From a bacterium (GTDB lineage Bacteria; Fibrobacterota; Chitinivibrionia; Chitinivibrionales; Chitinivibrionaceae), in contig JAIFMU010000119.1 in assembly GCA_020048285.1 (NCBI GenBank), positions 1 to 20,000 on the forward strand: 20,000 nucleotides of DNA, written 5' to 3'. The notes beneath the pieces were generated by a model, which worked only from the letters and a program-made list of their open reading frames with translations, was not told the origin of the DNA and did not search any database. Of the stretch, positions 1 through 19,903 are shown piece by piece. Position numbers and translations under genes: made by a program. The first letter of the stretch is position 1. Each line of letters begins with the position of its first letter.

Positions 1-656
1 TTCGCATGGACAAACCCGTCGAAGTGGCCGGTGCTCTCTTTGAATATTTCGAAGAGCGTCTGAAAATCACCAAGGATGAAAATGCGTGGGCGGTGGCTCA
101 AGGACTTGCGGCTCAGGCAGAATATCTTGAAACTCAGCGGAAATCCTTTACCGAAGCGATGAACAATCTGATCGACAACGATAAAATCGGGCTTCTTTTG
201 GTGGGCCACCCCTATCACCACGATCCGGGCCTAAACCATGGAATCCCCGAAGAGTTCCGCAAGCTCGGCTATCCGGTCTTTACGGTGGAATCTCTTCCGG
301 TGAGCGATGAGTTTCTTGCTCCGCTCTTTCCAGAACTGACGGAAAAGCATGGCTACTTTGATATCAGTGATGTGTGGCAGCGAAATTTCAATCGAAACAC
401 GAACCACAAGATTTGGGCAGCAAAGATTGCGGCTCGCCATCCGAATCTCGCCGTGATCGACCTGAGCAGTTTCAAGTGCGGCCACGATGCTCCGACCTAC
501 GCCTATGTGGATCAGATTCTCGATTCGACGGAAACGGCTCACTTTATGTTCCACGATATCGATCAGAACCGCCCCGGTGCATCGTTCAAGATCCGTATCC
601 AGACCATCGACTACTTCCTGAAACAGGAAGAGGAGAAGCTTCGGTCTAAATCGTGA
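1..656 (+). CDS. 3' part of a gene running in from upstream of the window (in-frame ATG at 6 is probably internal). It resembles the C-terminal domain found in CoA-substrate-specific enzyme activase / acyl-CoA dehydratase partner proteins (DUF2229-like).
   Basis: The ORF is open from the window edge to TGA at 654-656. It has conserved-looking motifs (VGHPYHHDPGLNHGIPEEFRKLGYPVFTVESLP, DLSSFKCGHDAPTYAYVDQIL). Its neighbour at 1790 is an HGD-D-like gene, with which this family is typically partnered. Family call is from memory, not from a search. Confidence 0.45.
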   Translation, partial: RMDKPVEVAGALFEYFEERLKITKDENAWAVAQGLAAQAEYLETQRKSFTEAMNNLIDNDKIGLLLVGHPYHHDPGLNHGIPEEFRKLGYPVFTVESLPVSDEFLAPLFPELTEKHGYFDISDVWQRNFNRNTNHKIWAAKIAARHPNLAVIDLSSFKCGHDAPTYAYVDQILDSTETAHFMFHDIDQNRPGASFKIRIQTIDYFLKQEEEKLRSKS

Positions 657-660
657 TATA

Positions 661-684
661 TTCCCGGGGATGAATCCCCGGGCT
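661..684 (+). terminator. GC-rich hairpin CCCGGGGA-TGAA-TCCCCGGG directly after the stop codon of the upstream gene. No U-tract follows, so it is terminator-like at best.
   Basis: Perfect 8-bp inverted repeat with a 4-nt loop, read directly from the sequence. The downstream flank (cttcgat) is not T-rich. Confidence 0.35.
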
Positions 685-748
685 TCGATAGAATGTCACC
701 CTTGGGGTTTGGGCTCAATCCGGTAGGATTCAACTGTATTGTAGACCC

Positions 749-766
749 GGAATTTATTCCGGGGAA
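749..766. repeat. Copy 1 of an 18-bp perfect direct repeat, cggaatttattccgggga. It contains the palindrome CGGAAT-TT-ATTCCG.
   Basis: The identical 18-mer recurs at 1758-1775, about 1 kb downstream. The internal inverted repeat (6-7 bp arms, 2-bp spacer) has operator-like symmetry. Confidence 0.6.
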
Positions 767-804
767 TGGATATTTGTAATACAATTTGAAATTCGAATTC
801 GGAT

Positions 805-820
805 CTTTTGAGGACAAAAG
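805..820 (+). other. Hairpin CTTTTG-AGGA-CAAAAG (6-bp stem, AGGA tetraloop).
   Basis: Perfect inverted repeat. The loop sequence is the same as in the two hairpins at 1673-1686 and 1699-1716. Confidence 0.4.
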
Positions 821-946
821 GTGTCCGGCAGATTGTTTTGGTCGGCCGGAATACAGCCGAGCCAAAACGCCGGCACCTTTCGTAACGCAATCCTTCGGAT
901 TCCCCCCAAACCCCCGGCGGGGGCTTAAATCGGGAATCCGAAAACC

Positions 947-1027
947 GATTTTCTGGATCTGACGGGGATTTTCTGGATCTGACGAGGATTTTCGGGATCT
1001 GACGAGGATTTTCGGGATCGGATAAGG
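947..1027. repeat. Tandem array of four 20-21-bp units, consensus GATTTTCKGGATCTGACGRG. Each unit carries one GATC. A T9 homopolymer follows at 1029-1037.
   Basis: Units at 947-967, 968-987, 988-1007 and 1008-1027 are read directly from the sequence, giving GATC sites phased at 20 bp. The array ends about 90 bp upstream of the small AT-rich ORF. Confidence 0.7.
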
Positions 1028-1115
1028 ATTTTTTTTTGCCTGATCGGAAGAAAATGCGGTGTCTATATTTTTAATAGAACTATCCCAACGATTCCAATTT
1101 TTATTGAAAGATGTT

Positions 1116-1484
1116 ATGAAAACTTTAATATTAATCTTAATGTTGCTTTGTATTTCATGCAAGAATGAAATCAAAACGGGAAATTATTTAAATGATATTT
1201 ATTCATCAACAAAAAGTTTAAATCTTTGCAATCTAACTCAATTTAAATGGGACAGTGTCAATATTAATTATGTTGAAAACTCAACAGCGCGAGACCGAAA
1301 ATTCTCTACAGATTTTCATTTTTATCATGAAAAGAAAATCGTGTACCAAGAGTCTATTGACATGCTCGCAATTACCTCAAGAATCAAAAAGATATCCTAT
1401 CTCAGATCAGAAACAAATTTTAAAATATTATGGGATAAGTCATATACAATTGGTGCAATAATTAAATGCGATACTTGTGACTAA
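1116..1484 (+). CDS. Small (122 aa), very AT-rich ORF for a secreted or lipoprotein-like protein of unknown function.
   Basis: The N-terminus MKTLILILMLLCISCKN has a signal-peptide character with Cys residues at positions 12 and 15 (non-canonical lipobox). GC content is far below the flanking DNA. The six-frame ORF (1059-1484) is trimmed here to the internal ATG that precedes the hydrophobic segment. The ribosome-binding site is weak. Confidence 0.4.
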   Translation: MKTLILILMLLCISCKNEIKTGNYLNDIYSSTKSLNLCNLTQFKWDSVNINYVENSTARDRKFSTDFHFYHEKKIVYQESIDMLAITSRIKKISYLRSETNFKILWDKSYTIGAIIKCDTCD

Positions 1485-1504
1485 TTTGAGATTTCGGGGG
1501 CGTT

Positions 1505-1521
1505 GCGGGGGTGTCCCCCGC
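1505..1521 (+). terminator. Hairpin GCGGGGG-TGT-CCCCCGC, about 20 bp after the stop of the small ORF. No U-tract follows. It lies inside a G-tract-rich stretch (1495-1600).
   Basis: Perfect 7-bp inverted repeat with a 3-nt loop. The surrounding sequence has runs GGGGG, GGGGG, GGGTGGGG, GGCGGG, GGGGGG and GGGG on the + strand. Confidence 0.35.
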
Positions 1522-1672
1522 TTGGGTGGGGAAGCAAAGACCGACTTTGTGAGGAACAAACAAAGGCGGGCTGAAGCGGGGGGAGGGGCGAAGCATCCCT
1601 ACCCCGAAAGAGAAAAACAATGAAGGTTGTGGTAAGCAATCGGATTGATATAAATACAACTAAAAACCAAAT

Positions 1673-1716
1673 TGAGGCAGGAGCCTCACGATGGGCATTC
1701 CAAGGCAGGAGCCTTG
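1673..1716 (+). ncRNA. Two adjacent hairpins with identical AGGA loops: GAGGC-AGGA-GCCTC (1673-1686) and CCAAGGC-AGGA-GCCTTGG (1699-1716). A third small hairpin, CATCC-GCAT-GGATG, lies just downstream. This is a candidate structured RNA element or regulatory site.
   Basis: Perfect inverted repeats were read directly. The GGA-in-loop hairpin architecture is what CsrA/RsmA-type proteins recognise. This is a structural observation only; expression is unknown. Confidence 0.3.
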
Positions 1717-1757
1717 GAACGAGATTCATCCGCATGGATGTAATTAACTATTAGCCT

Positions 1758-1775
1758 CGGAATTTATTCCGGGGA
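1758..1775. repeat. Copy 2 of the 18-bp direct repeat cggaatttattccgggga, ending 14 bp upstream of the ATG at 1790.
   Basis: Identical to 749-766. It sits immediately 5' of the RBS-like aacagggaac. Confidence 0.6.
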
Positions 1776-1789
1776 AACAGGGAACAAAC

Positions 1790-3217
1790 ATGACTATAAA
1801 AGCACCAAAGACCGTCCAAACAGAGAACTGGCAGGGATACAAAAATCCCGTTTGGCACAAAAAAGACAAAAAGAACGTTACCATTCTCTACAACATGATC
1901 GAACGACGGAAATCGTTTTTCCTTCGTGCCTACATGGAACGCAACGGCTACAACTATGTGGATCTTGGCGATCACGTCAAAGAGGATGTGCAGTTCGGGC
2001 GGGAATGGGGAACGCGGATGCAGTGCAATCCGATCTATTTCACTGCCGGTGCGATTATCCGCAATCTCCTTCGGATCGAAAAAGAGACAGGTCTTTCCAA
2101 AGAGAAGATCGTAAACGACTATGTGTTCCTCGGCGGAGGCGGTCAGTGCGGCCCCTGCCGCTACGGCATGTATCCTCAGGAGTATATGAAAGTTGCCAAT
2201 TCGGCGGGATTCAAAGATTTCCGATTCCTGATTTTCAACTCGGACATTATTCAGGATCCACCGATCCCCAAGGAAGCGGCGTTTCAGTTCGATGTGGGCT
2301 TTAAAGTCAACTTTATGCTGAGCTTTATTCTCGCGGACTTTATGCATATCGCCGAATGTGCACTTCGCCCCTATGCGATGGACAAAGAAGCGGCTTTGAA
2401 AACAATCACTCAGTGCGAAGAGATGATTCTCGAAACATTCAAGAGCAAACTCTATCTCTTTAAACTTCCCGGAGTGTTGCGGAAAGTCGGTAAGATTCTC
2501 GCGGCGGTTCCTCGCAAGGATATCAAGCTTCCGCAGATCTTTATCACCGGCGAAATCTTCGCAAATATGGCTCACAACGATGGAAACTACAACCTTCGCC
2601 GGTTCATCATGGACGAAGGTGGTGAAGTTCTTCCGGGGATCTTTTCCCAGCGAGGTTCTTACGAAGGGTGGCGTCGTATCAAGGAAGCGGAACGGAAAAT
2701 CCAGTACGCCGCTTCGCCAAAAGAGAAACGATACTGGCAGATCTATTCGTTCCGCCAGAAGATCTCCTACAATCTGGTGAAAAAGGCGTACGCGTGGCTT
2801 GAAAAAGCAATTGATCCGAAACAGTTCGGCGGAAAATCGGAGATGCACGATGTGGCGGAGCTGGCGAAAATCGGCGATGAACACTACAACACGCTCATTT
2901 TCGGCGGTGAAGGAAACATCGAGATCGGTGAAGCGATCTACTATCAGGACAAAATCGATGGATTTGTTTCGGTTAAACCGTTCGGCTGTATGCCTTCAAG
3001 CGGCGTGAGCGATGGTGTTCAGTCGAAAATTATCGGCATGTATCCGCATCTCAATTTCCTCTCGATCGAAACCTCCGGCGACAATGAAGTGAACATTCTT
3101 TCGCGCGTTTCCATGATGCTGTTCAAAGCAAAACAGCGGATGAAAGAGCGTGAGATGGGAGTTAAACCGGTGGTGGATGCTTCGAATCTGGATATCATAA
3201 CGACCTGTCGGGAGTAG
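1790..3217 (+). CDS. Protein of the 2-hydroxyacyl-CoA dehydratase (HGD-D / HgdB-like) family.
   Basis: 475-aa ORF preceded by agggaacaaacATG. It has a Cys-rich motif, GGGGQCGPCRYGMY, and further conserved cysteines typical of Fe-S dehydratase components. The family call is from memory. Confidence 0.55.
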   Translation: MTIKAPKTVQTENWQGYKNPVWHKKDKKNVTILYNMIERRKSFFLRAYMERNGYNYVDLGDHVKEDVQFGREWGTRMQCNPIYFTAGAIIRNLLRIEKETGLSKEKIVNDYVFLGGGGQCGPCRYGMYPQEYMKVANSAGFKDFRFLIFNSDIIQDPPIPKEAAFQFDVGFKVNFMLSFILADFMHIAECALRPYAMDKEAALKTITQCEEMILETFKSKLYLFKLPGVLRKVGKILAAVPRKDIKLPQIFITGEIFANMAHNDGNYNLRRFIMDEGGEVLPGIFSQRGSYEGWRRIKEAERKIQYAASPKEKRYWQIYSFRQKISYNLVKKAYAWLEKAIDPKQFGGKSEMHDVAELAKIGDEHYNTLIFGGEGNIEIGEAIYYQDKIDGFVSVKPFGCMPSSGVSDGVQSKIIGMYPHLNFLSIETSGDNEVNILSRVSMMLFKAKQRMKEREMGVKPVVDASNLDIITTCRE

Positions 3218-3360
3218 ATCGCTCCCTGAGCTTGTCGAAGGGAGTTCATTTCGACAGGCTCAACGACCATAAATCGGTTGGGAGAAATCCCCGCCGATTT
3301 TCTTTACAAACAACAGCCAAAGTCGTACTATTTCAGATAAACCAGTTTTAAGGAGAACCA

Positions 3361-3747
3361 ATGTACTATATCAAAGAATCCGCAAAATCGTTTGAAATCA
3401 CCGCAGAAGATCTTGCAACTGCCGTCCCGGAACAGGGATTCGGTGTACTTCACATTCACGATCTTGGAAATACCCTTCGAAATAAAGGGCAGAGTTTCAG
3501 CGAAGAGTGCCGCGTGTTCGAAGTGTGCAATCCAGTCTATGCATCAAAAGTTCTTGCGCAGGATATTCGCCTAAACATGGCTCTCCCCTGCCGTATTTCG
3601 GTCTACACAGAACTGGGATCGGTAAAAGTAGCCATGATCCTACCGCAGGAGATGCTCACCGCGCTTTCCAATGATCCAATAATTCAATCTGCCGCGGCAG
3701 AAGTTCAGACTAAACTTAAAACGATTATTGATAAGGCAATTCAGTAA
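3361..3747 (+). CDS. Protein of the DUF302 family.
   Basis: 128-aa ORF with RBS aaggagaaccaATG. Motifs GFGVLHIHDLGNTLRNKG and CNPVYASKVL...PCRISVYTE match my memory of the DUF302 family. Confidence 0.6.
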   Translation: MYYIKESAKSFEITAEDLATAVPEQGFGVLHIHDLGNTLRNKGQSFSEECRVFEVCNPVYASKVLAQDIRLNMALPCRISVYTELGSVKVAMILPQEMLTALSNDPIIQSAAAEVQTKLKTIIDKAIQ

Positions 3748-3770
3748 AATCAAATATTTAAGGAGTTATA

Positions 3771-5195
3771 ATGCGTTCACTCTCCCTTTTAGCAATTATC
3801 ACCATGTCAACCATGGCTCAAATTACCCCACAGGTAATCGTGGGTACCGATGCAGCCAAAGAGTACCGGATCAACACCGCCGATGACAATTCACTTCGCA
3901 CGAGAACAGCAATTATTCCGTTCACTCACATTAAAGTCGCTGAGATTTCCGGTCTGATCCGCAAGCAACTTTCCGTCTATGGGAATGTGACGCTCAATAC
4001 GGTATCAAACGAACTGATTGTCACCGATGAAGTTCGCAAACTGGAAAATATCGTTGCGGTCTGCAAATCTCTCGACAAAAAAGAGATGGAGAACTATCAG
4101 GCACGCCGTTCTGAACGAATCGCGGTTCAGTACGGGAAAGCATCTGAACTGGCGGGAGTCCTTGCAAACTTTCTCACGTCCGAAGGTTCAATCTCCGTTG
4201 ACAACAATTTTAATGCGCTGATCGTCACTGACCATCCCGAAGGAATCGCCAAGGTTCAAGATCAGCTGAAAAAGTTCGATGCTCCACAAAAACAGGTGGT
4301 GATCGATGTAGAAATCGTTGAAGTGGAATGGGGAAAACTGGAAGAAAATGGCATCGACTGGGATAAACTTCTCTCTTCGACATGGATAAATGCATCGACC
4401 CACAAGAGCGGCGCCGAAGCAATCTCAAATATTCTCGTTGAAAAAGAGGGCTCAACCTCTCAGAAAATTGCGGGGATCGAAGCGGGAATTTCTGTAGACA
4501 ATCTTTCGTCAGTCATCAAATTTATGCAGGAAAAAGGTGGCGCGAAGATTCTTGCCACTCCAAAACTGGTGACTGTTACCGGCAAACAGGCTTCGCTCTG
4601 GTATGGTGAAGATATTCGGGAACGCGGGATTATTCCGATAAATAGTTCACGTCAGAAAATCGAACCAAGTGGTACCTACGGAGTTGTAAGCCGTGTTCAA
4701 AATCATGCCGATTCTGCTAATTCTCCTTATTCAGGATCTTATAGCTATAATGCGAATACAACGAACTATCCTGCTAACTACAGCGGAAGTAGTTTGAGTA
4801 ACGTCACTCTTCAACGCACTGCCGGCCTTGATCTGCGAATCACCCCAACTCTTGGCGAAAGCGATCTGGTGAGTCTCGATTTCAACTGTGAACTGACCTC
4901 AATTCGCAGCTGGACACCTCAGGGAAATCCTCTCGTCACCGGTCAGGAGATCAACTCTTCGCTGATCGGAAAGATCGGTAAACCACTGCTGATTGGCGGA
5001 CTGAAACGAACAACCACGGTGGAAAAGAAAAAGCGCATTCCCGGACTCGGCCATATTCTTCCATTCCTTTTCTCGCGTACCGTGAGCGAAACAAAGGAAA
5101 CAGAACTAGCGATCCTGTTGACACCAAAAGTGGTTGATCTATCTACCGTAGTTCCCCGCCCTCAAGTGTTTGAAGAAACTGCAGAATTGAATTAA
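3771..5195 (+). CDS. Secretin-family outer-membrane channel (GspD/PilQ-like) with an N-terminal signal peptide.
   Basis: RBS aaggagttataATG and signal peptide MRSLSLLAIITMSTMAQ. The C-terminal secretin signature includes ILATPKLVTVTGKQA, GGLKRTTTVEKKKRIPGLGHILPFLFSRTVSETKETELAILLTPKVV and the N-domain segment NALIVTD. No other type II secretion or pilus genes are in the window. Confidence 0.7.
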   Translation: MRSLSLLAIITMSTMAQITPQVIVGTDAAKEYRINTADDNSLRTRTAIIPFTHIKVAEISGLIRKQLSVYGNVTLNTVSNELIVTDEVRKLENIVAVCKSLDKKEMENYQARRSERIAVQYGKASELAGVLANFLTSEGSISVDNNFNALIVTDHPEGIAKVQDQLKKFDAPQKQVVIDVEIVEVEWGKLEENGIDWDKLLSSTWINASTHKSGAEAISNILVEKEGSTSQKIAGIEAGISVDNLSSVIKFMQEKGGAKILATPKLVTVTGKQASLWYGEDIRERGIIPINSSRQKIEPSGTYGVVSRVQNHADSANSPYSGSYSYNANTTNYPANYSGSSLSNVTLQRTAGLDLRITPTLGESDLVSLDFNCELTSIRSWTPQGNPLVTGQEINSSLIGKIGKPLLIGGLKRTTTVEKKKRIPGLGHILPFLFSRTVSETKETELAILLTPKVVDLSTVVPRPQVFEETAELN

Positions 5196-5222
5196 TACCA
5201 ATAGCTAATTGTAACGATTCAT

Positions 5223-5867
5223 ATGGGCATTTCAAACGGAATGCCTGTTTTATTAAAGACTAACGGGAATGGAATGAACAGAGAAGAACGGCGAGCAATA
5301 CGCAACTATCACACTAGTCGTCAGGGAGATGATGCACATCAGCAGGGGTGGCGTTCACAATTTCATCAGACGATACGATTTGAACAGTTTTGCAACTCTA
5401 CAGATTTTTCTAACTGTTCGATACTCGATCTAAGTTGTGGCAAAGGCGACTTTTATCAGTATGTGCGAAAACGGTTTGCGGGTATCTGCTACACGGGAAT
5501 CGATCTGATCGGATCATTTGTGAACGAAGCCATTGCGCGATATGCAAACCATTCGCAGGCAACATTCATTCACGGCGATTTTCTCATGGGATCACTCCCT
5601 TCGGCGGACTGGATAATCGCTTCGGGAAGTCTCAACTACGCCACTGAAGATCGCAATCATCCGTATGAAATTATTCGCGCCATGTGGGATTCCTCGAATA
5701 AAGGAGTGATGTGTAATCTTTTGGATTCACAAACATTCACCGGAACGAGAATTCTTACTAGCTTCTCCCCAACTATTCTGAACGACTATTGCAAAACATT
5801 TGCCCGATCAGTTCAGTGCATTGAAGGCTATCTTCAAGATGATTTCACGATCATATTGCGGAAATAA
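5223..5867 (+). CDS. Class I SAM-dependent methyltransferase. The true start may be the internal ATG at 5274 (MNREERRAI...).
   Basis: It has motif I ILDLSCGKGDF, the post-I acidic GIDL, motif II FIHGDF and motif III ADWIIASGSLNY. The substrate cannot be inferred. Confidence 0.55.
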   Translation: MGISNGMPVLLKTNGNGMNREERRAIRNYHTSRQGDDAHQQGWRSQFHQTIRFEQFCNSTDFSNCSILDLSCGKGDFYQYVRKRFAGICYTGIDLIGSFVNEAIARYANHSQATFIHGDFLMGSLPSADWIIASGSLNYATEDRNHPYEIIRAMWDSSNKGVMCNLLDSQTFTGTRILTSFSPTILNDYCKTFARSVQCIEGYLQDDFTIILRK

Positions 5868-5962
5868 ACTGCGATTATGAAATCACCAACATTTTGAAAT
5901 CAATTTTTTGATCTCATACGAAAGTCTGAAAACTCTTCCATGCACATTCCGGAAATTGGTAT

Positions 5963-8900
5963 CTATACTTCACTCAGTTTTTGTTCCAAAGCGATCTTAT
6001 CCGCCTCAGACATCAACTGTTTCAGCGCACTCAATGATACAAACACCGCCTTTTGAAGCTTTTTCAGTTTGTCTTGTTGCTCAGTCATCGCTTTAAGCAC
6101 CGGCGCCACAGAAGCCTGAACTTCGCGGTTGTGCGATTCCACAAGCGCGGAAATCGATGCATCAGACGTGGCATTCCCCTGAACCGCCACAGGTGACGAG
6201 GCTTTCAACAATGCTGTGATCTGTTTAATTGTATCATCGGTGAATGAAATTTTCGAAAGATCATCGCCAGATTTTGCGGCGTTGATTGTGGCAATCAGTT
6301 CGCGGATTCCCTTGAGCGAATCGCCGAATCCCGCCATCTGAAGAACCATTTGGCCAACCATGTCATCTTCCTGAAGGAGCTTGTTTTTCCCATAGGTATC
6401 CTTGATTGCATTCCAGCGAATCAGATCGTCGCCAGCAAGTTTCCCCACAATCTCTTTCCACTTGAGAAGGTTCGCTTCGGCACCGGAAGTGAGTGTTTGC
6501 GAATCATTTTCGTAACTCTGCTGAATCAACAAATCCAGTTCCGCATCGTTCATTACGGGAAGTACTTTTTCCGCAATTTTGTTCATGTTTCGGTACGACC
6601 CCTGCAGCTTGAACGATGGCTCTGTTCTAAACTCATCGGCCTGCGCTGCAGAATAGATGTACTGCATGTTCACGCTGAGCACTACATCGCGCACTTTCAA
6701 CATTTTTTTCAAAACCGTTAGATACTCCTGAACCTCGATTGGCGAGTAATTTCCTTCGAGATCGATCCCATCGGTTCGTCCATCCACAGCCGAATCAATT
6801 AACGTATACACGTCTTTCTGACTGCGGGTCATAAGTGAATTCATAATCGGATTTGAGGTTAGGGCATTTTCGAGATACGACAGTTTGAACGCCGATTCAT
6901 TTGCGCTGAGCATGTCACCCAAGTTGTACGTGTCAGCGCGGTTAGCCAGCATATCTGGAATCTGAAACTTCTCACCACTTTCAGTGTAGGGGTTTCCGGC
7001 CATGACAACAGCGACTTTTTTCCCGCGAAGATCATAGGTTCGGCTGATCCCGTTGTACACACCTTCAATTCGACGCTGACCGTCACAGAGAGATATGAAT
7101 TTCTGCAGGAACTCAGGATTACAGTGTTGAATATCATCAACATAGATCATCACATTATTACCCATTTCAAGGGCGAGGTTGAGTTTTTTCACCTCTTCAC
7201 GCGCTCCCGCATTGGGTGCCGATGTGGGATCGAGAGAGGTAACTTCGTGCCCCAATGCCGGACCGTTGATTTTCATGAAAATCAATCCCAATCGGCTGGC
7301 GATGTACTCCATAATCGTTGTTTTACCGTAACCGGGAGGTGAAATCAAAAGCAGCATCCCCATGAGGTCGGTGCGCTTGTTTTCGCCCACGGTTCCGATC
7401 TGTTTGGCGAAATTATCGCCGATAAGCGGAAGGTATACTTCGTTGATCAACCGATTGCGCACAAAGGAAGTAAGTACACGAGGCCGAAACTCTTCGAGGC
7501 GAAGTTCTTTGCGGAATGCATCAACCACCGCTTTTTTCGTCTCCTGATAGGTGTACCAAAGTGTAACCGTAACCGCGCTAAATGCACTCAGTTTCTCCAT
7601 GAATCCGGTGTAGGAAATAGCGTAGTTCCCTCCAGAGACCACCGTGTGATTTCCAATCAATCCAGTCACTGATATTTTCGTAGGAACTTCGATCACATTG
7701 CGAATATTGTACGAATCAGCCAAAAGAAGCTGAGCTGTTTCGGGGATAAACTCGGCGCGGTCCACAATGTTTGACTCAGCCGTATACGCTTCGAGCCATT
7801 CGAGGATCAATCCAAATTTCGCGGAAATTGAAGTTTCCAATTCAGCAAGCGACTCTTTGAAAACCGATTCGCCCCGCTTCTGCTTGAGCACTTCGCTGAA
7901 CCCCTTGTAGAGTTCTGAAGCCTCCGAAGAGATCACAAAGGTTTCACCGCGCATCTGTTCGCGACAGAGATAGTGCGCCGCTTCCAATGAAGTAGCACTT
8001 TCAAAATGACCGAATTCTGCGAGGAATGCCGCGAGAGCCGGTTTGATCTGCTGCGCATAACTGAGGATTGTCTTTTTAGTGCTGAACAACTGAGAAACTT
8101 TGTGGACACCGCGTAGGCGTGCGGCGAACAGTTTTTTGTCGGCGTCGCTGATCCCGAAATCCCAAAAAAGTTGAGCTGCAGTACGCGCGGTAGCCGGGAA
8201 CGTCAGTAGATCCAACGATGTATGAAGTTTGATCAGTTCCGTCAGGATTTTCGCCGTATCGCCATCGTGAATCCCCTTGATGTACCCTTCCTGAAGGCGC
8301 GTGGACATAAATTTCTGCACGTAATCCGCCAACTCTTCGCCGGTGAGATTCGCTAGTTCGGACAGTTCTCCCGATTTTTCAGCCGATTCAAGGATCGTGA
8401 AGGCCAAATATTCAGAACGATAGATTTGGTCGTTCTCCGAAGGCATTTCCTGTTTCCACACTGCTTTGAGCGAATCAAGCGCAGGACTTTCAACCTTTTG
8501 TTTGAAATCAGTGCCAGTGAGAAGGAACCAGTGGCCATCGTCGCGCTGAACCATGGTGAGATCAAGTTCTTGTGCATTCACTGAGAATTTATGTTTGCCA
8601 AACTTGACGACATTCGTTCCCTCTTCGAACAGCTCCTGCTTGTCCTTCAGTTGACGAACAGCTTCCTCTTTTGAGCTCTTTATCTGACTCTGAAGGTCAT
8701 CGGCTTTCACCGAATCACCCAGTTTGTTCAGCTCTTCCACGTTGTCGCGAACCTTTTCAATCATAAGATCCGTGGCGAAATATCCGTTGATTTCGTTAAT
8801 CGTGGTGAAATTTTTCAGGCGATTCTTAATCCCGGCGATAATCCGTTCCGAAGCCTGCATGATTGCGCCGGCACGCTTGTTCCGTTTTTCCACCAAGGAG

Positions 8901-11182
8901 AGTTTTTTCGTTTCAAAGGCACTGAACAACTCTTCTCGTTTTTCTGCAAGTTGAGGAATAAACTGATCGAAATCGGCAAACTTGCCTTCCAACTCTTCAA
9001 CCTGAACCATCAGTTTGGTCAGATATTCATCGCATTTTTCTGGCGTGTCAGCCACATCGAGATAGTTGATCACCGCTTGATTAAGCAGTTTCAGTTGTGA
9101 ATTAAACTCCGCAGTGCCTTCAAATGAAGAGAGTTCCGTGATTCGATTCTGAAGTTTTGCCTTTACCGCATTGAGCGATGAAAAAATCACCGAAATGGTG
9201 TCAATAATCGCCGTGGTCTGTGTGGGATCATCAATTTTCAGATTTGACACAATCTCAATAAGCAGTTCGAGATCACGCCCGGTCTTGCGAATCTCCTCTT
9301 CCAACGATTTGCCTTCGGCGGTCTTTTCGATTGAAGGAACGCGACTGCTCTGTGCTTCAACGCGAACTCTATACGGATCAAGTCCTTCAGGTTTGAGAAG
9401 ATATTCGATACACCCTTGTGAAAGTTCGTCAGATTTTGTGCGAACGTCAGTTTCCAGTGTTTCGATCAGCGGAAGATTTGTATAGCGCAACTCTTTGAGT
9501 GAAATGATCTCCCCGCGAAGAACTCGCAGTTCAGAAAGAGCCGTCACATAGAGATCCACGGAGTCAAACGTGGTACTGCGAATTTTCCGCATTCCGATTT
9601 CAACTTTTTCTGAAACCCGCGCAATTTCCTCTTCAGTAGATTTGCGGATTCGCACCACTTTTTCAAACTCGTCAATGGCAGTAATGGCGGCTTGACGAAT
9701 CTCAATAAGTACCGATTTCAGATCCGATGCGTCCTCTTTTTCAATCCAGAAATAGGTGTCGATAATTTCGGTACACTGTTTATTAATATCGACATAGAGA
9801 TTAGCGTAGCTATCTTCTTTGCGGATCAGGTTGATCACATTTTGGCACTCCGCCATGGTCTGAACAACCTGCTTGTTCCCCACTTTCACCAAGAATGAAT
9901 CACTAGTCACTTCAGCTTGGAAATCGGCGCTGGTAAAGGGCGTCTGCCAGATTTGCAGTTGGTGATTTTTCTTTGGCTCTTCGTCAGCGCGGAAGAGGAT
10001 CAGTTCACCGTTTTCGAAATGGGTGTAACCGTTGACAACAATTGGTGCTTCAATAGTTTGATTAATAAGATTATAGGTGAGTATTGCGTAGATTCCCGAT
10101 TCGCGATTAAAAAAGATATACTGAAAATCTTCGCCATTGGGTGAGACTTTTTTCTGAACAAACAGCATATCTTTCAGGCCCGTGTCGAACGTTTTGTATT
10201 CGCCAGACTGAAGATAATAGCCATTTGAAAAGACCAATCCCTGTTGATCGGGAAGAATTATACAGGCATCGGCTATCGCATCGATACGCGTGACACTCTG
10301 AATTTTTTCATTGAACACGAGATAACGGAATGTTTTTTCTTGGTATGGCTTGATTTTTATGAGAATGATATTGCCAATTATAGCGTAGTAAATCTCCGCA
10401 TCATCAAGTTTTTGATCTTTGCTCTCCACGTCTTCTGAGTAAATTCCGCGACCTGATTTTGTGTTGTTTTCAACTTTGATTGTGAGATCACCGCCCACGG
10501 TTTCCACAAACACTCGATCGTTGATCGAGATGTGAGGAAATTCGCCGTCACAGTGCATATCACGCGTCGTGCGTTTCCATTCAAATTCAAACTGAAGCGG
10601 AAACTGGTATTCATGATCACTGCGATTGTCCATATAGGTGAGTGCATTATCTTGAATCAACCACTTGAATGTCTTTATATCTGTGACACTATTGCCCGTT
10701 CTGAAAACCATAAATAAGTGGGGACCAATGATCGAAAACCGTGTAAAGAATGTGCTTTTGTAGTATTTATAGAGATCTTCGAAATCTTTAAGAAAGGTTT
10801 CGTTGTTGATCAGTGCCAGTGTTGTTTCGGTGAATTTTCGGTTTTGATACTCAAAGATCGCGAATACATCGGCCAGTTCGATCTTCGATTTCATTCCCAT
10901 CATCACGTTGAACCCGAAAATCGATTTGTTGCCAATCTGAACGAGATCGCGCGGTGTGCAATTGTTGACGGTCATGATTCGTTCATTGCTAACAATAGAC
11001 ATTTCTATCGATCCGAAAATCTCCTTTCGCGTGCAGTTGAGTCTCTCGAGTCGAGTCTGCAGTTCCGCACTGTGCGTTTTCAGTCGCCCGCGAATCACTT
11101 CGTATGTACCACTTTCCATTGTAGGAACTTCGTGAATTGTCAGTTCTTGGTCAGCCACAGAATCTCCTTGAATGATTGCCAT
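5963..11182 (-). CDS. Giant (1739 aa) multidomain protein. It has an N-terminal beta-rich domain of about 480 aa, a long coiled-coil/alpha region, and a single MoxR/AAA_5 (dynein-related)-type AAA+ ATPase module near residues 1250-1420, followed by a C-terminal alpha-helical tail of about 320 aa.
   Basis: One uninterrupted 5.2-kb ORF. The Walker A motif LLLISPPGYGKTT is encoded at about 7317-7340. The Walker B and arginine-finger region VMIYVDDIQHCNPEFLQKFISLCDGQRRIEG parallels the MoxR pattern DEINRA..Q.ALLEAM.E..V. A sensor-1-like motif VAVVMAGNPY parallels AxxNP of AAA_5. Heptad-rich segments lie between residues about 480 and 1000. It is last in the operon with the NfeD-like and flotillin genes. 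The family assignment is by motif only. Confidence 0.6.
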   Translation of the reverse strand: MAIIQGDSVADQELTIHEVPTMESGTYEVIRGRLKTHSAELQTRLERLNCTRKEIFGSIEMSIVSNERIMTVNNCTPRDLVQIGNKSIFGFNVMMGMKSKIELADVFAIFEYQNRKFTETTLALINNETFLKDFEDLYKYYKSTFFTRFSIIGPHLFMVFRTGNSVTDIKTFKWLIQDNALTYMDNRSDHEYQFPLQFEFEWKRTTRDMHCDGEFPHISINDRVFVETVGGDLTIKVENNTKSGRGIYSEDVESKDQKLDDAEIYYAIIGNIILIKIKPYQEKTFRYLVFNEKIQSVTRIDAIADACIILPDQQGLVFSNGYYLQSGEYKTFDTGLKDMLFVQKKVSPNGEDFQYIFFNRESGIYAILTYNLINQTIEAPIVVNGYTHFENGELILFRADEEPKKNHQLQIWQTPFTSADFQAEVTSDSFLVKVGNKQVVQTMAECQNVINLIRKEDSYANLYVDINKQCTEIIDTYFWIEKEDASDLKSVLIEIRQAAITAIDEFEKVVRIRKSTEEEIARVSEKVEIGMRKIRSTTFDSVDLYVTALSELRVLRGEIISLKELRYTNLPLIETLETDVRTKSDELSQGCIEYLLKPEGLDPYRVRVEAQSSRVPSIEKTAEGKSLEEEIRKTGRDLELLIEIVSNLKIDDPTQTTAIIDTISVIFSSLNAVKAKLQNRITELSSFEGTAEFNSQLKLLNQAVINYLDVADTPEKCDEYLTKLMVQVEELEGKFADFDQFIPQLAEKREELFSAFETKKLSLVEKRNKRAGAIMQASERIIAGIKNRLKNFTTINEINGYFATDLMIEKVRDNVEELNKLGDSVKADDLQSQIKSSKEEAVRQLKDKQELFEEGTNVVKFGKHKFSVNAQELDLTMVQRDDGHWFLLTGTDFKQKVESPALDSLKAVWKQEMPSENDQIYRSEYLAFTILESAEKSGELSELANLTGEELADYVQKFMSTRLQEGYIKGIHDGDTAKILTELIKLHTSLDLLTFPATARTAAQLFWDFGISDADKKLFAARLRGVHKVSQLFSTKKTILSYAQQIKPALAAFLAEFGHFESATSLEAAHYLCREQMRGETFVISSEASELYKGFSEVLKQKRGESVFKESLAELETSISAKFGLILEWLEAYTAESNIVDRAEFIPETAQLLLADSYNIRNVIEVPTKISVTGLIGNHTVVSGGNYAISYTGFMEKLSAFSAVTVTLWYTYQETKKAVVDAFRKELRLEEFRPRVLTSFVRNRLINEVYLPLIGDNFAKQIGTVGENKRTDLMGMLLLISPPGYGKTTIMEYIASRLGLIFMKINGPALGHEVTSLDPTSAPNAGAREEVKKLNLALEMGNNVMIYVDDIQHCNPEFLQKFISLCDGQRRIEGVYNGISRTYDLRGKKVAVVMAGNPYTESGEKFQIPDMLANRADTYNLGDMLSANESAFKLSYLENALTSNPIMNSLMTRSQKDVYTLIDSAVDGRTDGIDLEGNYSPIEVQEYLTVLKKMLKVRDVVLSVNMQYIYSAAQADEFRTEPSFKLQGSYRNMNKIAEKVLPVMNDAELDLLIQQSYENDSQTLTSGAEANLLKWKEIVGKLAGDDLIRWNAIKDTYGKNKLLQEDDMVGQMVLQMAGFGDSLKGIRELIATINAAKSGDDLSKISFTDDTIKQITALLKASSPVAVQGNATSDASISALVESHNREVQASVAPVLKAMTEQQDKLKKLQKAVFVSLSALKQLMSEADKIALEQKLSEV

Positions 11183-14256: not shown

Positions 14257-14886
14257 GTGAAAACGATCGCCGTATGTATTTCTCTTTTTCTTGGTGCTAC
14301 CACTACACTTCTACTCTCAACTGTAGGTGAATTGACCTTCGCAATCTCGGGACTGATAGGATTACTCACTACCGGTGTAGCCTTTATCGCAATCCCTTCG
14401 CCGAGTAAACCAGATTCACCCAAGACAACTCGAGCAGCTAATCAATCCGCAATTCCACAGATTGTTCATACTGCAGAAAAAGATATTGCACAGCTCGAAC
14501 TCATTCTGTCCCAGCTCATAGAATCACCAAGCAGATCGAGGCTCCTATCGATTATCCAAGTGGCAAAGCAGTTACAGCAGGCACCGTTGCAAGATCCACG
14601 TACCAACATTGATCTACACAGTTTTTTTAACCACTATCTTCCCGCCACCGCTGCGATTTGTACACATTATATAGAACTGACTCAACACCCTTTTCAAACT
14701 GAAGAAGTAGCGGAAACTCTCGCCAAAACAGAACAAGCACTTGAACAGATAGAGGTGGCCTTTAAAAAACAACGATCGAATCTTCTGGCTCATGATTTAC
14801 TCGATCTCAATGTTGAACTCACGGTGATAGAATCGTCGCTTCGCCTTGAAGGATTGGTTGAAAAAGCAGACTCACGCAGAGGATAA
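14257..14886 (+). CDS. XpaC-like membrane protein (5-bromo-4-chloroindolyl phosphate hydrolysis protein family) with a GTG start.
   Basis: It has two N-terminal TM helices followed by a helical domain. It lies immediately upstream (3-nt gap) of a TelA-like gene, the same pairing as Bacillus xpaC-yaaN. The family call is from memory. Confidence 0.5.
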   Translation: MKTIAVCISLFLGATTTLLLSTVGELTFAISGLIGLLTTGVAFIAIPSPSKPDSPKTTRAANQSAIPQIVHTAEKDIAQLELILSQLIESPSRSRLLSIIQVAKQLQQAPLQDPRTNIDLHSFFNHYLPATAAICTHYIELTQHPFQTEEVAETLAKTEQALEQIEVAFKKQRSNLLAHDLLDLNVELTVIESSLRLEGLVEKADSRRG

Positions 14887-14889
14887 TCG

Positions 14890-15963
14890 ATGATCAAGGA
14901 ACATACACTCCCAAAAGATCACTCACCAATCGACAACTCCCTTTTTTCTGATGAACAGCAGCAACGCATTGCCGAACTTGCAGCATCCCTATCTATCGAA
15001 AACTCTCTGGAGATGGCGCAATATGGCACTTCTGCTCAGCGTGCAATCGCGCGACAGGCCAATGCAATGCTTCTCGCCATTCGTGAACGCGAAGGCAGCG
15101 AAATAGGTTCAACTCTGTCACAACTCAAACTCACAATAGAAAAGGTTGATCTCTCAAACGATGAAGGCTCCCGTTCTCGTTTATCCAAAATCCCATTTTT
15201 CGGAAATTTTTTCAATTCGACAAAGCAATACCATATCAAATTTGAAACGATAGTCACGCAGATTGACTCAATACTTACCGCTTTAGACACACATCGCGTA
15301 GCTCTTCTCAAAGATAACGAACGACTTAACTACCAATTTTCCCAGAATGAAAATGCTATTATCGATCTGACGATGTTTATCTCAGCCGGTGAAATGAGAC
15401 TCGATGAAATCAGAACAATTCACCACAAACAGCTTAATGAAGGAGCTCTAAAATCACAAGATTCTCTCATGTCACAAGAAATCGCAGACAAAGAACACCT
15501 GATGGCACGATTTGAAAAACGTCTCTTCGACCTATCGATCAGTCGGACCCTTGCCCTGCAAATAGCTCCTCAAATTCGACTTATTCAGAGTACGAACAAT
15601 AGGCTTGTCGAAAAAATAAATGGTGTGATTATCTCGACAATACCGATTTGGAAACAGCAAGTTGCCCTAGCTCTTTCACTGAGTAATTATCAAAAGGGGA
15701 TTGAACAAAAGCGAGCTTTCACGAAAGCAACAATTGATCAGTTCACCGTTCAGGCACAACTTATCAAGGAGGGAACAGCCGCAGTGAACCTGAACTCGCA
15801 GGACATGAGCATTGAAAAGGAAAAAGTGAAAATAGTTCAGGAAAATCTCATTGCCACAATCACAGAGACGATTCTCCTTCAAGAAAAATGTCTGGAAAAT
15901 CGCCAGTCGATTGAAAGAGAGTTGGTTGCCATGGAACAGGAGTTACAGGCGGCTCGGATCTGA
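14890..15963 (+). CDS. TelA-like (toxic anion resistance / KlaB / YaaN family) protein.
   Basis: 357 aa. The N-terminal region DEQQQRIAELAASLSIENSLEMAQYGTSAQRAIARQANAML and the overall helical architecture match the TelA family. It is tightly coupled to the XpaC-like gene. Confidence 0.6.
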   Translation: MIKEHTLPKDHSPIDNSLFSDEQQQRIAELAASLSIENSLEMAQYGTSAQRAIARQANAMLLAIREREGSEIGSTLSQLKLTIEKVDLSNDEGSRSRLSKIPFFGNFFNSTKQYHIKFETIVTQIDSILTALDTHRVALLKDNERLNYQFSQNENAIIDLTMFISAGEMRLDEIRTIHHKQLNEGALKSQDSLMSQEIADKEHLMARFEKRLFDLSISRTLALQIAPQIRLIQSTNNRLVEKINGVIISTIPIWKQQVALALSLSNYQKGIEQKRAFTKATIDQFTVQAQLIKEGTAAVNLNSQDMSIEKEKVKIVQENLIATITETILLQEKCLENRQSIERELVAMEQELQAARI

Positions 15964-17848: not shown

Positions 17849-17851
17849 ATA

Positions 17852-18130
17852 GTTTCTGCTGGAAAACGGTCAGTTTCTGCTGGGTGAATCTCGGTTTCTG
17901 CAGGAGGGATGGTGTGTTTCTGCAGGTGGGATGGTGAGTTTTTGCTGGATGAATCTCAGTTTCTGCTGGTGGGATGGTGAGTTTCTGAAGGAGGCATGGT
18001 GAGTTTTTGCAGGGGGAAGTTCAGTTTCTGCAAGTGGAAATTCAATTTCTGCGGAGGAGATCTCAACTGTGTACGGGAGCGGGTTCAATTTCTGCGGGGA
18101 ATGGTTTGATTGCCTGCATCTGAACGGCAA
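17852..18130. repeat. Non-coding tandem array of about 11 units with a 21-22-bp period. Each unit has a conserved 5' core GTTTCTGC (later units ATTTCTGCGG). Two 3' half-types alternate: GGDGGGATGGTGA versus GGRTGAATCTCR / AAGTTCA.
   Basis: Units begin at 17852, 17873, 17894, 17916, 17938, 17959, 17981, 18003, 18024, 18045 and 18088. The period is not a multiple of 3, and unit lengths of 21 and 22 are mixed, which argues against a coding repeat. The array ends about 85 bp upstream of the vsr start. Confidence 0.75.
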
Positions 18131-18213
18131 TTTTGGCGAGATATTTACCGGTGATTCGCCGGTGAAGAGCGATTTCGCGGATGGTATATTACACTGGTCA
18201 AAGGCAGGGAGAT

Positions 18214-18648
18214 ATGACGGAGTCGAAGGATCATCTGACGCCGGAGAGGCGAAGCTGGAATATGAGCCGGATTCGGTCGAAGGATACTAAGCCGGAGATA
18301 GTTGTCCGAAAGGCTCTCTTTGCCGCCGGTTTCCGATATCGCCTCCATGTGAAAGATCTTCCCGGGAAGCCGGATATTGTTCTTCCGAAGTATAAAACGG
18401 CAATTTTCGTTCACGGCTGTTTCTGGCACCGCCACGAGGGATGCAAACGGTGTACAACTCCTACGAAAGATCGGGAGTTCTGGGAGAAGAAGTTCCAGAG
18501 AACGGTGGAACGGGATCAGCAGGAAAGAATCGCTCTTGAACACGCAGGATGGAGAGTTCTGACTGTGTGGGAGTGTGAGATCGGGACTGCCAAAATCGAA
18601 AAAACGGTACTGCTTCTGAAATCTAAAATTCTGAGCGGGGGGAGTTAA
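18214..18648 (+). CDS. vsr: Very-short-patch repair endonuclease (Vsr family).
   Basis: SWNMSRIRSKDTKPEIVVRKALFAAGFRYRLHVKDLPGKPDIVLPKYKTAIFVHGCFWHRHEGC is a classic Vsr N-terminus and active-site region. The start at 18214 (MTESKD...) is preferred over the upstream ATG at 18181. Confidence 0.8.
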   Translation: MTESKDHLTPERRSWNMSRIRSKDTKPEIVVRKALFAAGFRYRLHVKDLPGKPDIVLPKYKTAIFVHGCFWHRHEGCKRCTTPTKDREFWEKKFQRTVERDQQERIALEHAGWRVLTVWECEIGTAKIEKTVLLLKSKILSGGS

Positions 18649-18809: not shown

Positions 18810-18829
18810 GTTAGTGAGTATTGATTGCA

Positions 18830-19903
18830 ATGAATACAAAATTTAAAGCGATAGATTTTTTCTGCGGAGCGGGGGGAATTACCTGTGGTTTTCAGCAGGC
18901 GGGAATACCAGTTCTTGCAGGTGTCGACATTGATACAAGCTGTAAAGACACCTACGAAATTAATAATCGTTACGGCAATTATGAAAGCCTAATCGGTTTA
19001 ACCGGTGGGCCTCAGTTTATTTCAAAAGATATCAATGAACTGCCCTTCGAGGAGCTTTCTGAGATTACGGGCATTCGACAGAATGACGATAATCTGATCC
19101 TTGTGGGCTGCAGTCCCTGCCAGTTCTGGAGCCAGATAAACACCACTCGCGACAAAGCTCAAAAAACAATGAATCTGCTTTCACGCTTTCAGGAGTTCGT
19201 TGAACATTTCAAGCCGGGGTATGTGGTTATTGAAAATGTACCGGGGCTTGAAAAACGAAAAGATGAAAGCAAGCTAGATCTGTTCCTCTCGATGCTGGAA
19301 AAGAACGGGTATGTGTTTGACGGCAAAGTCATGAGAACCGAACAACACGAGATACCTCAAACCCGCAAACGATATGTTCTTTTAGCGACACGGGTGAAAG
19401 ATGCAATCACACTTCCCGAAGCTTCTGACTACAAACCGGTACTGAAAGATTTTATTGGCGATACTAAACGCTTCCCTGTTTTACCTGCCGGGTATGAAGA
19501 TTCCGGTAATCTTCAACACATAACGGCAGGACTCAGCGACCTGAATCTTCGCCGCCTTCAGAAAACACCCATGGGCGGTGACCGTCTGAACTGGGCAGAT
19601 GATCCGGAGCTGCAGATTCCGTGCTATCAGGACAAGCCAAATATTTTCAGAACTATCTATGGACGACTTCATTGGGACAAAATTGGTCCCACTATTACGA
19701 CAAAATTTCTACGGATTTCCAACGGACGCTACGGTCATCCTGAACAGGATCGGGGCCTTTCTCTTCGTGAAGGTGCGACACTACAGACCTTCCCTTACGG
19801 GTATGTATTCTACGCAGGAAGTATGGATGCGAAAGCACGGCAGATCGGAAATGCGGTTCCACCAAAACTGGCAGAAAAAATTGCACAACAAATTCTTAAA
19901 TAG
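18830..19903 (+). CDS. DNA (cytosine-5)-methyltransferase.
   Basis: It has motif I FFCGAGG, motif IV GCSPCQFWS (the catalytic PCQ), motif VI ENV, QTRKR and motif X RQIGNAVPP. ATG 18830 is preferred over the TTG at 18821 used by the ORF track. Confidence 0.85.
   Translation: MNTKFKAIDFFCGAGGITCGFQQAGIPVLAGVDIDTSCKDTYEINNRYGNYESLIGLTGGPQFISKDINELPFEELSEITGIRQNDDNLILVGCSPCQFWSQINTTRDKAQKTMNLLSRFQEFVEHFKPGYVVIENVPGLEKRKDESKLDLFLSMLEKNGYVFDGKVMRTEQHEIPQTRKRYVLLATRVKDAITLPEASDYKPVLKDFIGDTKRFPVLPAGYEDSGNLQHITAGLSDLNLRRLQKTPMGGDRLNWADDPELQIPCYQDKPNIFRTIYGRLHWDKIGPTITTKFLRISNGRYGHPEQDRGLSLREGATLQTFPYGYVFYAGSMDAKARQIGNAVPPKLAEKIAQQILK

Follow-up and report, generated by a model that had tools for sequence, protein, structure and literature searches.

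A candidate transposase-less IS200/IS605-type insertion at the stop/start overlap of a normally coupled gene pair in a Fibrobacterota bacterium

Palindrome-associated transposable elements (PATEs) are short, non-autonomous derivatives of the IS200/IS605 family of insertion sequences (IS) that carry no open reading frame (ORF). Elements of this family move as single-stranded DNA ("peel and paste"); their Y1 (HUH) transposase, TnpA, binds the folded hairpin, and cleavage is guided by a tetranucleotide 5′ of the hairpin foot. At the right end of IS608, the guide (GR) is GAAT and the cleavage site (CR) is TCAA, located 10 nt 3′ of the hairpin foot, and both published IS608 guide/cleavage pairs fit the rule C = comp(G2) comp(G1) A comp(G4) that is used below (PMC3201880, PMC5934647). 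Two further groups are relevant here. Repetitive extragenic palindromes (REPs) of the GTAG families are known mainly from Proteobacteria and Cyanobacteria (PMC3733652), and Y1 transposases of subclass 1.2, found in Bacteroidetes and Cyanobacteria, occur at low copy number and generally without the typical IS200 end structures (Quentin et al. 2018, PMC6006769). The present analysis concerns an insertion of 1137 nt, and the hairpin modules within it, in a 20,000-nt stretch of DNA from a bacterium of the family Chitinivibrionaceae (Fibrobacterota; positions 1 to 20,000 of contig JAIFMU010000119.1, assembly GCA_020048285.1). This whole stretch is hereafter called the window.

The insertion occupies positions 653..1789 and separates two genes of the plus strand. 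The upstream gene, of which the 3′ part lies at 6..656, encodes a large BcrAD_BadFG/DUF2229 protein of the "CoA enzyme activase" type (Pfam DUF2229, E = 1.2e-16), whose full-length orthologues have 1100-1116 aa and carry both BcrAD_BadFG and DUF2229. The downstream partner (1790..3217) encodes a protein of 475 aa with 3081 homologues at E ≤ 1e-10, the nearest named ones being from Chitinivibrio and Fibrobacterota. An earlier note on this DNA, made from its letters alone, had called this gene HGD-D-like, a name that finds no backing, as the protein matches no Pfam family even at E = 10. Its ATG at 1790 is the orthologous start codon, which has been kept, and the N-terminus M-T/S-I-K-A-P-K is common to the eight orthologues aligned. 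In each of the flanking genes, the GC content of third codon positions (GC3) is 0.60. The same note had held that the two genes are normally linked, which is confirmed, as they overlap or lie ≤2 nt apart in 15 of the 27 orthologous loci surveyed. Among relatives the overlap ranges from 1 to 13 nt, with 4 nt as its most frequent state; for instance, it is 1 nt in locus L001 (85% identical), 8 nt in L002 (81%), and 4 nt in L003 (69%). When 653-1789 is deleted in silico, the junction reads ...AAA TCA TGA CTA..., so that a 4-nt ATGA stop/start overlap is restored and the C-terminal Lys-Ser of the upstream protein is unchanged. Because the orthologous genes overlap in relatives and the removal of 653-1789 regenerates ATGA, the spacer is regarded as inserted DNA, in agreement with what the note had suggested. 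It is a clean, lineage-specific insertion at the ATGA stop/start overlap of a normally coupled gene pair, with limits drawn from the sequence itself, from the 4-nt overlap of relatives, and from the junctions of a closer relative (L083) that is described below. The present stop codon of the upstream gene, TGA at 654-656, lies within the first four bases of the insertion.

Near both ends of the inserted DNA there is a perfect 18-mer, CGGAATTTATTCCGGGGA, which is present in exactly two directly oriented copies in the 20 kb. The right copy is at 1758-1775, as the note had it, and the left one at 748-765 instead of 749-766. No further match was found in the 20 kb at ≤3 mismatches, and two copies appeared in 0 of 200 shuffles. 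The true identity is 19 nt, with one extra A, and belongs to a longer imperfect direct repeat of 49 nt (718-766 and 1728-1776; 73% identical), where it stands at the 3′ end. The two copies had been thought to bracket the anomalous stretch almost exactly. They do lie near its ends, although the left copy is ~95 nt inside and the true limits are 653 and 1789.

Each 18-mer belongs to a longer module of 61 nt, in which a small hairpin of variable sequence is followed by ~14 nt of spacer, a tag of four nucleotides, and a conserved hairpin, CCCCGGAATTTATTCCGGGG. Searches (cmsearch) with a covariance model derived from 26 aligned two-hairpin sequences revealed three modules in the window, all of them within the 1.1-kb insertion. 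M1 (655..715, minus strand; 24.2 bits, E = 2.7e-5) is inverted and degenerate, M2 (712..772, plus strand; 59.6 bits, E = 2.6e-17) contains the left 18-mer, and M3 (1722..1782, plus strand; 48.4 bits, E = 1.6e-13) contains the right one. With the same model, no module was found in 67 kb of the closest relatives' loci or in 177 kb of more distant loci. All three modules fold into both expected hairpins, with z = -3.1 for M2 and for M3. The small hairpin of M2 is at 717-730 (AATCC GGTA GGATT), its tag GTAG at 741-744, and its main hairpin at 746-763; the corresponding features of M3 are at 1727-1740 (CATCC GCAT GGATG), 1751-1754 (TTAG), and 1755-1774. In M1, the small hairpin is at 698-708 and the main one, the variant CCCGGGGATTCATCCCCGGG on the minus strand, at 663-682. 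In the alignment of 26 modules, both partners have changed together (compensatory substitution) in each of the five base pairs of the small hairpin, and the covariation observed was reached by no shuffle. The note's second suggestion, of one palindromic operator used at two places, comes closer than its first: a functional palindrome seems to be reused, at three places, but as a transposase substrate or REP-like repeat and not as a local operator.

To judge from its sequence, M1 has the exact geometry of an IS608 right end, including the putative cleavage site. Its tag is GAAG, followed by AATATATCAC, and TCAC stands at +7..+10 (GTGA at 653-656 on the plus strand). This is exactly what the IS608 rule predicts from the guide GAAG; with respect to GAAT/TCAA, the change in the guide is compensated by a matching change in the cleavage site. 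The predicted right-end terminus coincides with the left edge of the insertion and contains the present stop codon of the upstream gene. M2 and M3, for their part, lie on the same strand in direct orientation and without terminal inverted repeats, which is the orientation of IS200/IS605 ends. The tag of M3, TTAG, predicts AAxC, and AAAC is found at +1..+4 and again at +12..+15 (1786-1789, abutting the ATG), which is a weak match.

The reading that best accounts for these features, to which we assign a probability of roughly 55%, is that M1 is an old right end of the IS608 type, left at the point of the original insertion, and that M2...M3 is a transposase-less unit with mosaic cargo, dependent on a Y1 enzyme encoded elsewhere. 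M1, read on the minus strand, would be a decaying end whose predicted cleavage site is the left edge of the insertion and gives the upstream gene its present stop codon. M2 and M3 would serve as the left and right ends of the family and bracket ~950 bp of cargo without a transposase. This unit may be a non-autonomous element or a REP-like doublet that was moved as one, presumably by the action of a Y1 enzyme from another part of the genome. Since neither Y1_Tnp nor OrfB_IS605 is present in the 20 kb, it could only be a non-autonomous derivative of IS200/IS605. The arrival of this DNA may also have altered the expression of the downstream gene.

The locus agrees with IS608 and the IS200/IS605 family in its subterminal direct hairpins, in the tetranucleotide guide 5′ of the hairpin, in a predicted site of right-end cleavage at the distance of 10 nt (GAAG/TCAC in M1, GAAT/TCAA in IS608), and in that elements with tnpB or tnpA in other genomes end in this hairpin. 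Restoration of the junction on removal may be a further point of agreement, although a 3-bp duplication would also fit the TGA of both junctions. In contrast to these elements, that of the window has neither tnpA nor tnpB and carries an orphan ORF together with structured and tandem-repeat DNA; M2 and M3 have GTAG and TTAG tags and an extra covarying hairpin upstream, and M2 departs from the left-end rule on distance and guide. With PATEs it has in common that it lacks a transposase and is bounded by both end hairpins of the family. Nevertheless, the unit of the window measures ~1.07 kb and contains a passenger ORF and a tandem array.

Further evidence on the nature of the hairpin comes from other genomes. 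In a scan of one genome per species, the exact 18-mer was found in 78 genome stretches, against ~17 expected from 4^-18, and none of them is from Fibrobacterota, the source genome being absent from that collection; viral contigs gave 3 matches. The note had allowed that the 18-mer could be a common dispersed intergenic motif of its own genome, and it is such a motif in these other genomes. A literature search with the exact sequence returned nothing relevant. Three classes were recognized from the flanks of the copies and from counts of the tetranucleotide immediately before the complete stem. In the first (class a), GAAT-tagged and from Firmicutes loci, the hairpin lies 20-70 nt downstream of tnpB (OrfB_IS605 plus Cas12f1-like_TNB), as observed in L064, L011/L052, and L060. 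The GAAT tag is present in L004, L011/L052, and L060. In the first two of these, TCAA follows at +7..+10, so that tag and distance are those published for the right end of IS608, and in L060 it follows at +5..+8. L064 has a different tag and no TCAA. In the second (class b), tagged AAAA or GAAA, the hairpin resembles a left end, with TTAT 17-19 nt 5′ of the foot in L046, L037, L016, L042, L061, L052, and L009. TTAT is what the rule predicts from AAAA, and the left-end rule holds for the AAAA-tagged ends in L046, L052, and L009.

A clear example of a transposase-less element bounded by this hairpin is found in L046 and L037, where an ORF-less sequence of ~330 nt has a hairpin at each end in direct orientation. 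Its left end consists of TTAT, 17 nt, and the AAAA tag, and its right end of the GAAT tag with TCAA at +7..+10. This PATE-like element is 97% identical between a metagenome-assembled genome (MAG) of Acidobacteriota and one of Clostridia, which suggests, from sequence comparison, recent spread by horizontal transfer. Its coordinates are 6271-6594 (minus strand) in L046 and 4957-5177 in L037, and loci L016, L042, and L061 are listed with it.

The third class (class c) comprises ~25 copies with the tag GTAG and near variants of it, all preceded by a small variable hairpin and a spacer of ~14 nt. They come from Cytophagales, Chitinophagales, Balneolales, Acidobacteriota, Armatimonadota, Marinimicrobia, and others, and both 18-mer copies of the window show this architecture. 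GTAG stands directly 5′ of the full stem in 15 of 80 genomic matches; M2 has it, while M3 (TTAG) and M1 (GAAG) differ. Taken together, the classes identify the 18-mer hairpin, by its sequence context, as a putative subterminal recognition hairpin of a widespread IS200/IS605 Y1 lineage. Because the same hairpin has been kept across unrelated phyla, the identity of the two 18-mers reflects constraint on a recognition hairpin and not a recent duplication.

When the whole module is considered, the covariance model finds 137 copies in 78 loci, both as tandem arrays with a period of ~75 nt and as clusters of mixed orientation. Up to ~28 tandem copies are present in a single intergenic region (Dyadobacter locus L026), and the arrays of Cytophagales (Dyadobacter sp. 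3J3 and others) alternate two hairpin variants, with loops TTTA and TTCA. Arrays of this order with a period of ~75-80 nt are located at 1900-3900 in L026, 141-880 in L006, 2480-3606 in L014, and 7684-7974 in L036. No match to Rfam at its gathering threshold was obtained in 18 module-bearing loci, and a scan for modules of the window type (ATCC....GGAT plus hairpin) gave 0 matches in a metagenome collection that contains neither the source genome nor contig L082 (see below).

In some loci the modules are associated with transposase genes. In L062 (Rhodohalobacter; 5000-7100), a gene for a 153-aa Y1 transposase, itself part of a repeat cluster of 365 nt, has a module on either side, the two being in direct orientation and on the strand opposite to the gene. 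The protein matches Pfam Y1_Tnp at E = 4e-28 and scores 69 bits with the NCBIfam IS200 model (cutoff 55), compared with 25.9 bits with the RayT model (cutoff 80). An IS200-type Y1 gene is likewise bracketed by two direct modules of the opposite strand in L078 (a Bacteroidota MAG; 4800-5350). Both proteins carry the subclass 1.2 signature Y---Q--HH, as YIKNQQEHH and YIFNQEEHH. Thus, two members of a subclass that has been described without typical end structures (PMC6006769) are flanked here by modules. In all, direct pairs around tnpA, tnpB, or nothing occur at four independent loci.

The modules are also reminiscent of REPs of the GTAG type, palindromes of 20-40 nt preceded on their 5′ side by the tag GT[AG]G, and of the bacterial interspersed mosaic elements (BIMEs) that they form. 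A GTAG or near-GTAG tag stands directly 5′ of a GC-rich palindrome; the copies are intergenic, arranged in tandem or inverted clusters, and numerous per genome elsewhere; and the inverted pair M1/M2 resembles a "tail-to-tail" dimer (PMC3733652). They differ in having a second covarying hairpin and in a main hairpin that does not vary from one phylum to another, REPs being as a rule specific to a lineage. Association with a REP-associated tyrosine transposase (RAYT) is not observed either: the module-linked Y1 protein of L062 scores as IS200 and not as RayT, and the window encodes none. The locus is of a known kind, that of IS200/IS605 derivatives and REP-like repeats, and what appears to be undescribed, in Rfam and in the literature searched, is the variant, which combines a two-hairpin module whose main hairpin is invariant across phyla with a passenger ORF and a position at an ATGA overlap. 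A bolder proposal goes further, and we consider it speculative and rather unlikely. According to it, the two-hairpin module would be the DNA substrate of subclass 1.2 Y1 transposases that has so far been missing, and would constitute a cross-phylum REP-like system absent from Rfam; direct pairs would be able to move any DNA between them, in this case a cassette with an orphan lipoprotein gene, and such units would land precisely at the ATGA overlap, a recurrent landing site for accessory and defence genes in this lineage.

Several observations weigh against M2...M3 being a unit bounded by family ends. The IS608 left-end rule fails for M2, as no tetranucleotide predicted from GTAG/TAGA is found 17-19 nt 5′ of the foot. 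The right-end rule is only loosely followed by M3, whose AAAC is at +12..+15 and not at +7..+10, in an A-rich context. Pfam and tblastn searches of the whole window gave no Y1_Tnp, OrfB_IS605, tnpA, or tnpB; no remnant of tnpB (tblastn) or tnpA is detectable inside the insert; and a second copy of the cargo was found in no collection searched. In most genomes, GTAG-tagged modules form tandem arrays that carry no cargo, are flanked by housekeeping genes, and have no transposase gene in their vicinity, so that M2 and M3 could be independent REP-like copies. The edges are ambiguous as well, since each junction contains a TGA (654-656 on the left, 1791-1793 on the right) and the limits may be shifted by up to 4 nt or reflect a 3-bp duplication. 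Finally, the same bond is occupied in L083 by other DNA, without any module, which makes the site a hotspot regardless of the modules.

This last point leads to the strongest alternative, which we hold to be clearly less probable than the preferred one but still in serious contention. It states that the junction is a hotspot where foreign DNA was taken up by unrelated means, such as recombination between the conserved flanking genes or illegitimate recombination, and that three REP-like modules then settled separately in the new non-coding DNA, so that M2 and M3 do not delimit a single mobile unit. L083 (GCA_020726425.1), whose flanking proteins are 97% and 95% identical to those of the window, has an unrelated insert of 3.7 kb (2968-6685) after the same AAATC and before the same ATGAC, with no copy of the module or the hairpin. 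It contains an AbiEii-like gene, a 21-nt tandem array, an N6/N4 methyltransferase, and a 373-aa ORF. The ends of the two inserts show no similarity above the shuffled background beyond their first seven bases ([G/A]T[G/A]ATAT). In a more distant clade, the pair is separated by an AAA_14/DUF4143 ATPase, a DUF1016 fragment, and a Lcl_C/lectin-like ORF. Apart from the window and L083, the occupied junctions are those of L102 (2471-4976), L104, L105, L088 (4218-4976), and L084. The junction between BcrAD_BadFG/DUF2229 and its partner is thus a recurrent site for accessory DNA. For the window and L083, a common ancestral insertion with later turnover of its content is the more economical history, with repeated targeting of the site as the alternative. 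Separate settlement would also fit the surroundings of the modules elsewhere: in a Pfam tally of 99 ORFs beside 26 modules, the neighbours are ordinary housekeeping genes, and no enrichment of recombinases was seen among the top 25 families. It would fit, in addition, the mosaic composition of the cargo and the likeness of only 73% between M2 and M3 outside the hairpin.

The position of the modules and the distribution of substitutions speak against this hotspot history. All three modules of the 20 kb are confined to one stretch of 1.1 kb, the predicted cleavage site of M1 is the very edge of the insertion, and the same arrangement of a direct pair, around tnpA, tnpB, or nothing, is seen at the four independent loci. 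A second strain provides a comparison. L082, a metagenome contig of 1119 bp from the Joint Genome Institute (JGI), corresponds to window 425-1543 without gaps at 98.8% identity and has the same insertion. Its 13 differences are distributed as 6 in 77 third codon positions of the upstream gene, 5 in the 61 positions of 657-717 (M1), and 2 in the 826 positions of 718-1543, with 0 in the part of the latter from 1001 to 1543. The contrast between M1 and 718-1543 is significant (Fisher p = 2.5e-5) and amounts to a ~30-fold drop in divergence from ~718, that is, from the boundary between M1 and M2. M1 diverges like neutral DNA, and from ~718, where M2 starts, the two strains share a more recent history. 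Such a step is as expected if M2 and what follows came in, or were exchanged, after M1. It could also result from a recombination tract or from chimerism in the metagenome assembly.

A different role for the palindromes, as regulatory elements, is improbable as a full explanation. In this case, the palindrome and its companion hairpin would act mainly in RNA or duplex DNA, in the way known from REPs of E. coli, as a terminator or attenuator, an mRNA-stabilising hairpin, or a site for a host protein, and would set the expression of the orphan ORF and the downstream gene. The hairpins are indeed stable (z about -3) and suggestively placed, as M3 ends 15 nt before the downstream ATG and the M1 hairpin begins 7 nt after the upstream stop, and secondary roles of this sort are known for REPs (PMC3733652; bioRxiv 10.64898/2026.03.23.713779). 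However, no run of T follows any of the hairpins, a terminator scan gave one unrelated site only, and no Rfam family matches; moreover, the exact conservation of stem and loop across phyla and the linkage to tnpA and tnpB point to recognition by a transposase as the primary constraint. A regulatory effect is compatible with the transposon-type origin preferred here and does not exclude it.

The origin that the earlier note favoured, a site-specific integrative element or transposon whose 18-bp attachment (att) site or target site had been duplicated, with the 18-mers as attL/attR cores or a target-site duplication, is very improbable, for although two exact direct copies near both ends of a foreign stretch are non-random in the window, the 18-mer is absent from the uninterrupted junctions of relatives (no copy in the junctions of L001-L003 or of 23 further loci), its left copy is 95 nt inside the insertion, the insert has no integrase, the modules around the copies are 27% different outside the hairpin, and conservation of the 18-mer in unrelated phyla as an IS-end or REP-like hairpin makes its identity no sign of recent duplication.

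If the transposon-type origin favoured above is correct, the locus would show a translationally coupled operon split cleanly by an element of the single-strand transposon type, with neither gene lost and a new stop codon supplied by the element. In many phyla, ISs with tnpB, transposase genes of the IS200 type, mini-elements without an ORF, and large REP-like arrays are connected by one exact hairpin, which offers a handle on how REP-like repeats arise from IS200/IS605 ends and suggests DNA partners for Y1 subclass 1.2. Should module pairs truly carry passenger genes, the cargo capacity of the simplest transposon family would be extended, a matter of interest for programmable DNA-insertion tools. 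Independently of this, the recurrent occupation of one bond by unrelated cargo, including AbiEii and a methyltransferase in a close relative, provides a small and well-defined hotspot for study.

The cargo between M2 and M3 is mosaic in composition, with structured DNA of normal GC content and a low-GC cassette formed by a tandem array, a promoter-like stretch, and an orphan ORF. The features that the note had listed (hairpins, a four-unit array, a T9 tract, a low-GC ORF of 122 codons, a G-tract, and AGGA loops) are all present. A near-perfect hairpin of 70 nt at 814..883 (DNA fold -23 kcal/mol, z = -6.3; no Rfam match) is followed by a nested hairpin at 894-942 and then by the tandem array at 947..1032, which has 4.3 copies of the 20-nt unit GATTTTCGGGATCTGACGAG (TRF score 130, 92% matches) and continues 3′ into the T9 tract at 1029-1037. 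The AT-rich, promoter-like stretch at 1033-1115 has a GC content of 0.31, and a promoter-like TTGAAA-16/17-TAATAT, by match to the consensus only, is found at 1104-1132. The region from 1485 to 1721 is rich in G and A, normal in GC content, and structured (z = -5.2), with a hairpin near 1507-1523 and two AGGA-loop hairpins at 1673-1688 and 1700-1717 that have the core AGGC-AGGA-GCCT in both cases. The latter, as well as the GC-rich hairpin at 663-682 and that of 70 nt, fold as described. Together with the small hairpin of M3 at 1727-1740, the two AGGA-loop hairpins form a series of three with a spacing of ~27 nt a short way upstream of the main hairpin of M3, and may be additional copies of the small hairpin of the module. 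Along the spacer, GC content falls to a minimum of 0.23-0.33; it is low only in 1033-1484 (0.28-0.31), while the rest, at 0.45-0.54, is like the neighbourhood.

The orphan ORF (1116..1484, plus strand) encodes 122 aa and has a GC content of 0.28. Its GC3 is 0.27, compared with 0.60 in both flanking genes, a contrast that, together with the lack of homologues, speaks for a foreign core of the insert. The protein begins MKTLILILMLLCISCKNE, a stretch that resembles a signal peptide with a lipobox-like cysteine after it; read in this way, the N-terminus MKTLILILMLLCISCK looks like a lipoprotein signal. A phmmer search against 1.84 billion representatives found no homologue but the protein itself, no Pfam or NCBIfam family matched, and the AF2 model is uninformative (pLDDT 34.5). 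The ORF is identical in the strain contig L082. As to the insert as a whole, BLAST against plasmid and phage collections gave no match, its internal parts have no similarity to any fetched locus, no tRNA or tmRNA was found, and a permissive Rfam search of 400-2100 gave nothing near a gathering score. The best match below threshold, to Acido-Lenti-1 (22 bits, gathering 37), falls on the M1 hairpin (663-694) and is probably nothing but a common GC-rich hairpin shape.

Some further candidates were considered and set aside. The IS608 guide rule gave no fit for M2 as a left end, for the whole insert read on the minus strand, or for GTAG-tagged modules in general. A TTTATAG that the window has in common with the left-end boundaries of L046 falls in codons 2-4 of the downstream gene and was judged coincidental. 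Readings as an integron attC site or a dif module were dropped without a formal test, because the consensus features, GTTRRRY and a 28-bp XerC/D site, are not in the repeat. The tandem units of L083 and the window have only TTCGGGAT in common, which is too weak to claim a relationship.

A second tandem array in the window, at 17851-18039, has ~6-8 copies of the 22-nt unit AGTTTCTGCAGGAGGGATGGTG and lies ~140 nt upstream of a pair formed by vsr (18181-18648) and a C5 cytosine methylase gene (18821-19903). In L083, the 21-nt array, which contains an assembly gap, is ~110 nt upstream of the methyltransferase gene, and the 20-nt array of the insertion is ~85 nt upstream of the orphan ORF. Tandem arrays with units of 20-22 nt ahead of accessory genes may thus be characteristic of the lineage. 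Elsewhere in the window, in the regions 5963-11182 (minus strand) and 14257-15963, a DUF3686/DUF7902/AAA protein of 1739 aa ("ATPase involved in DNA repair") is encoded beside two unannotated ORFs of 717 and 214 aa, with a TelA-like and a Halogen_Hydrol (XpaC-like) protein in the vicinity.

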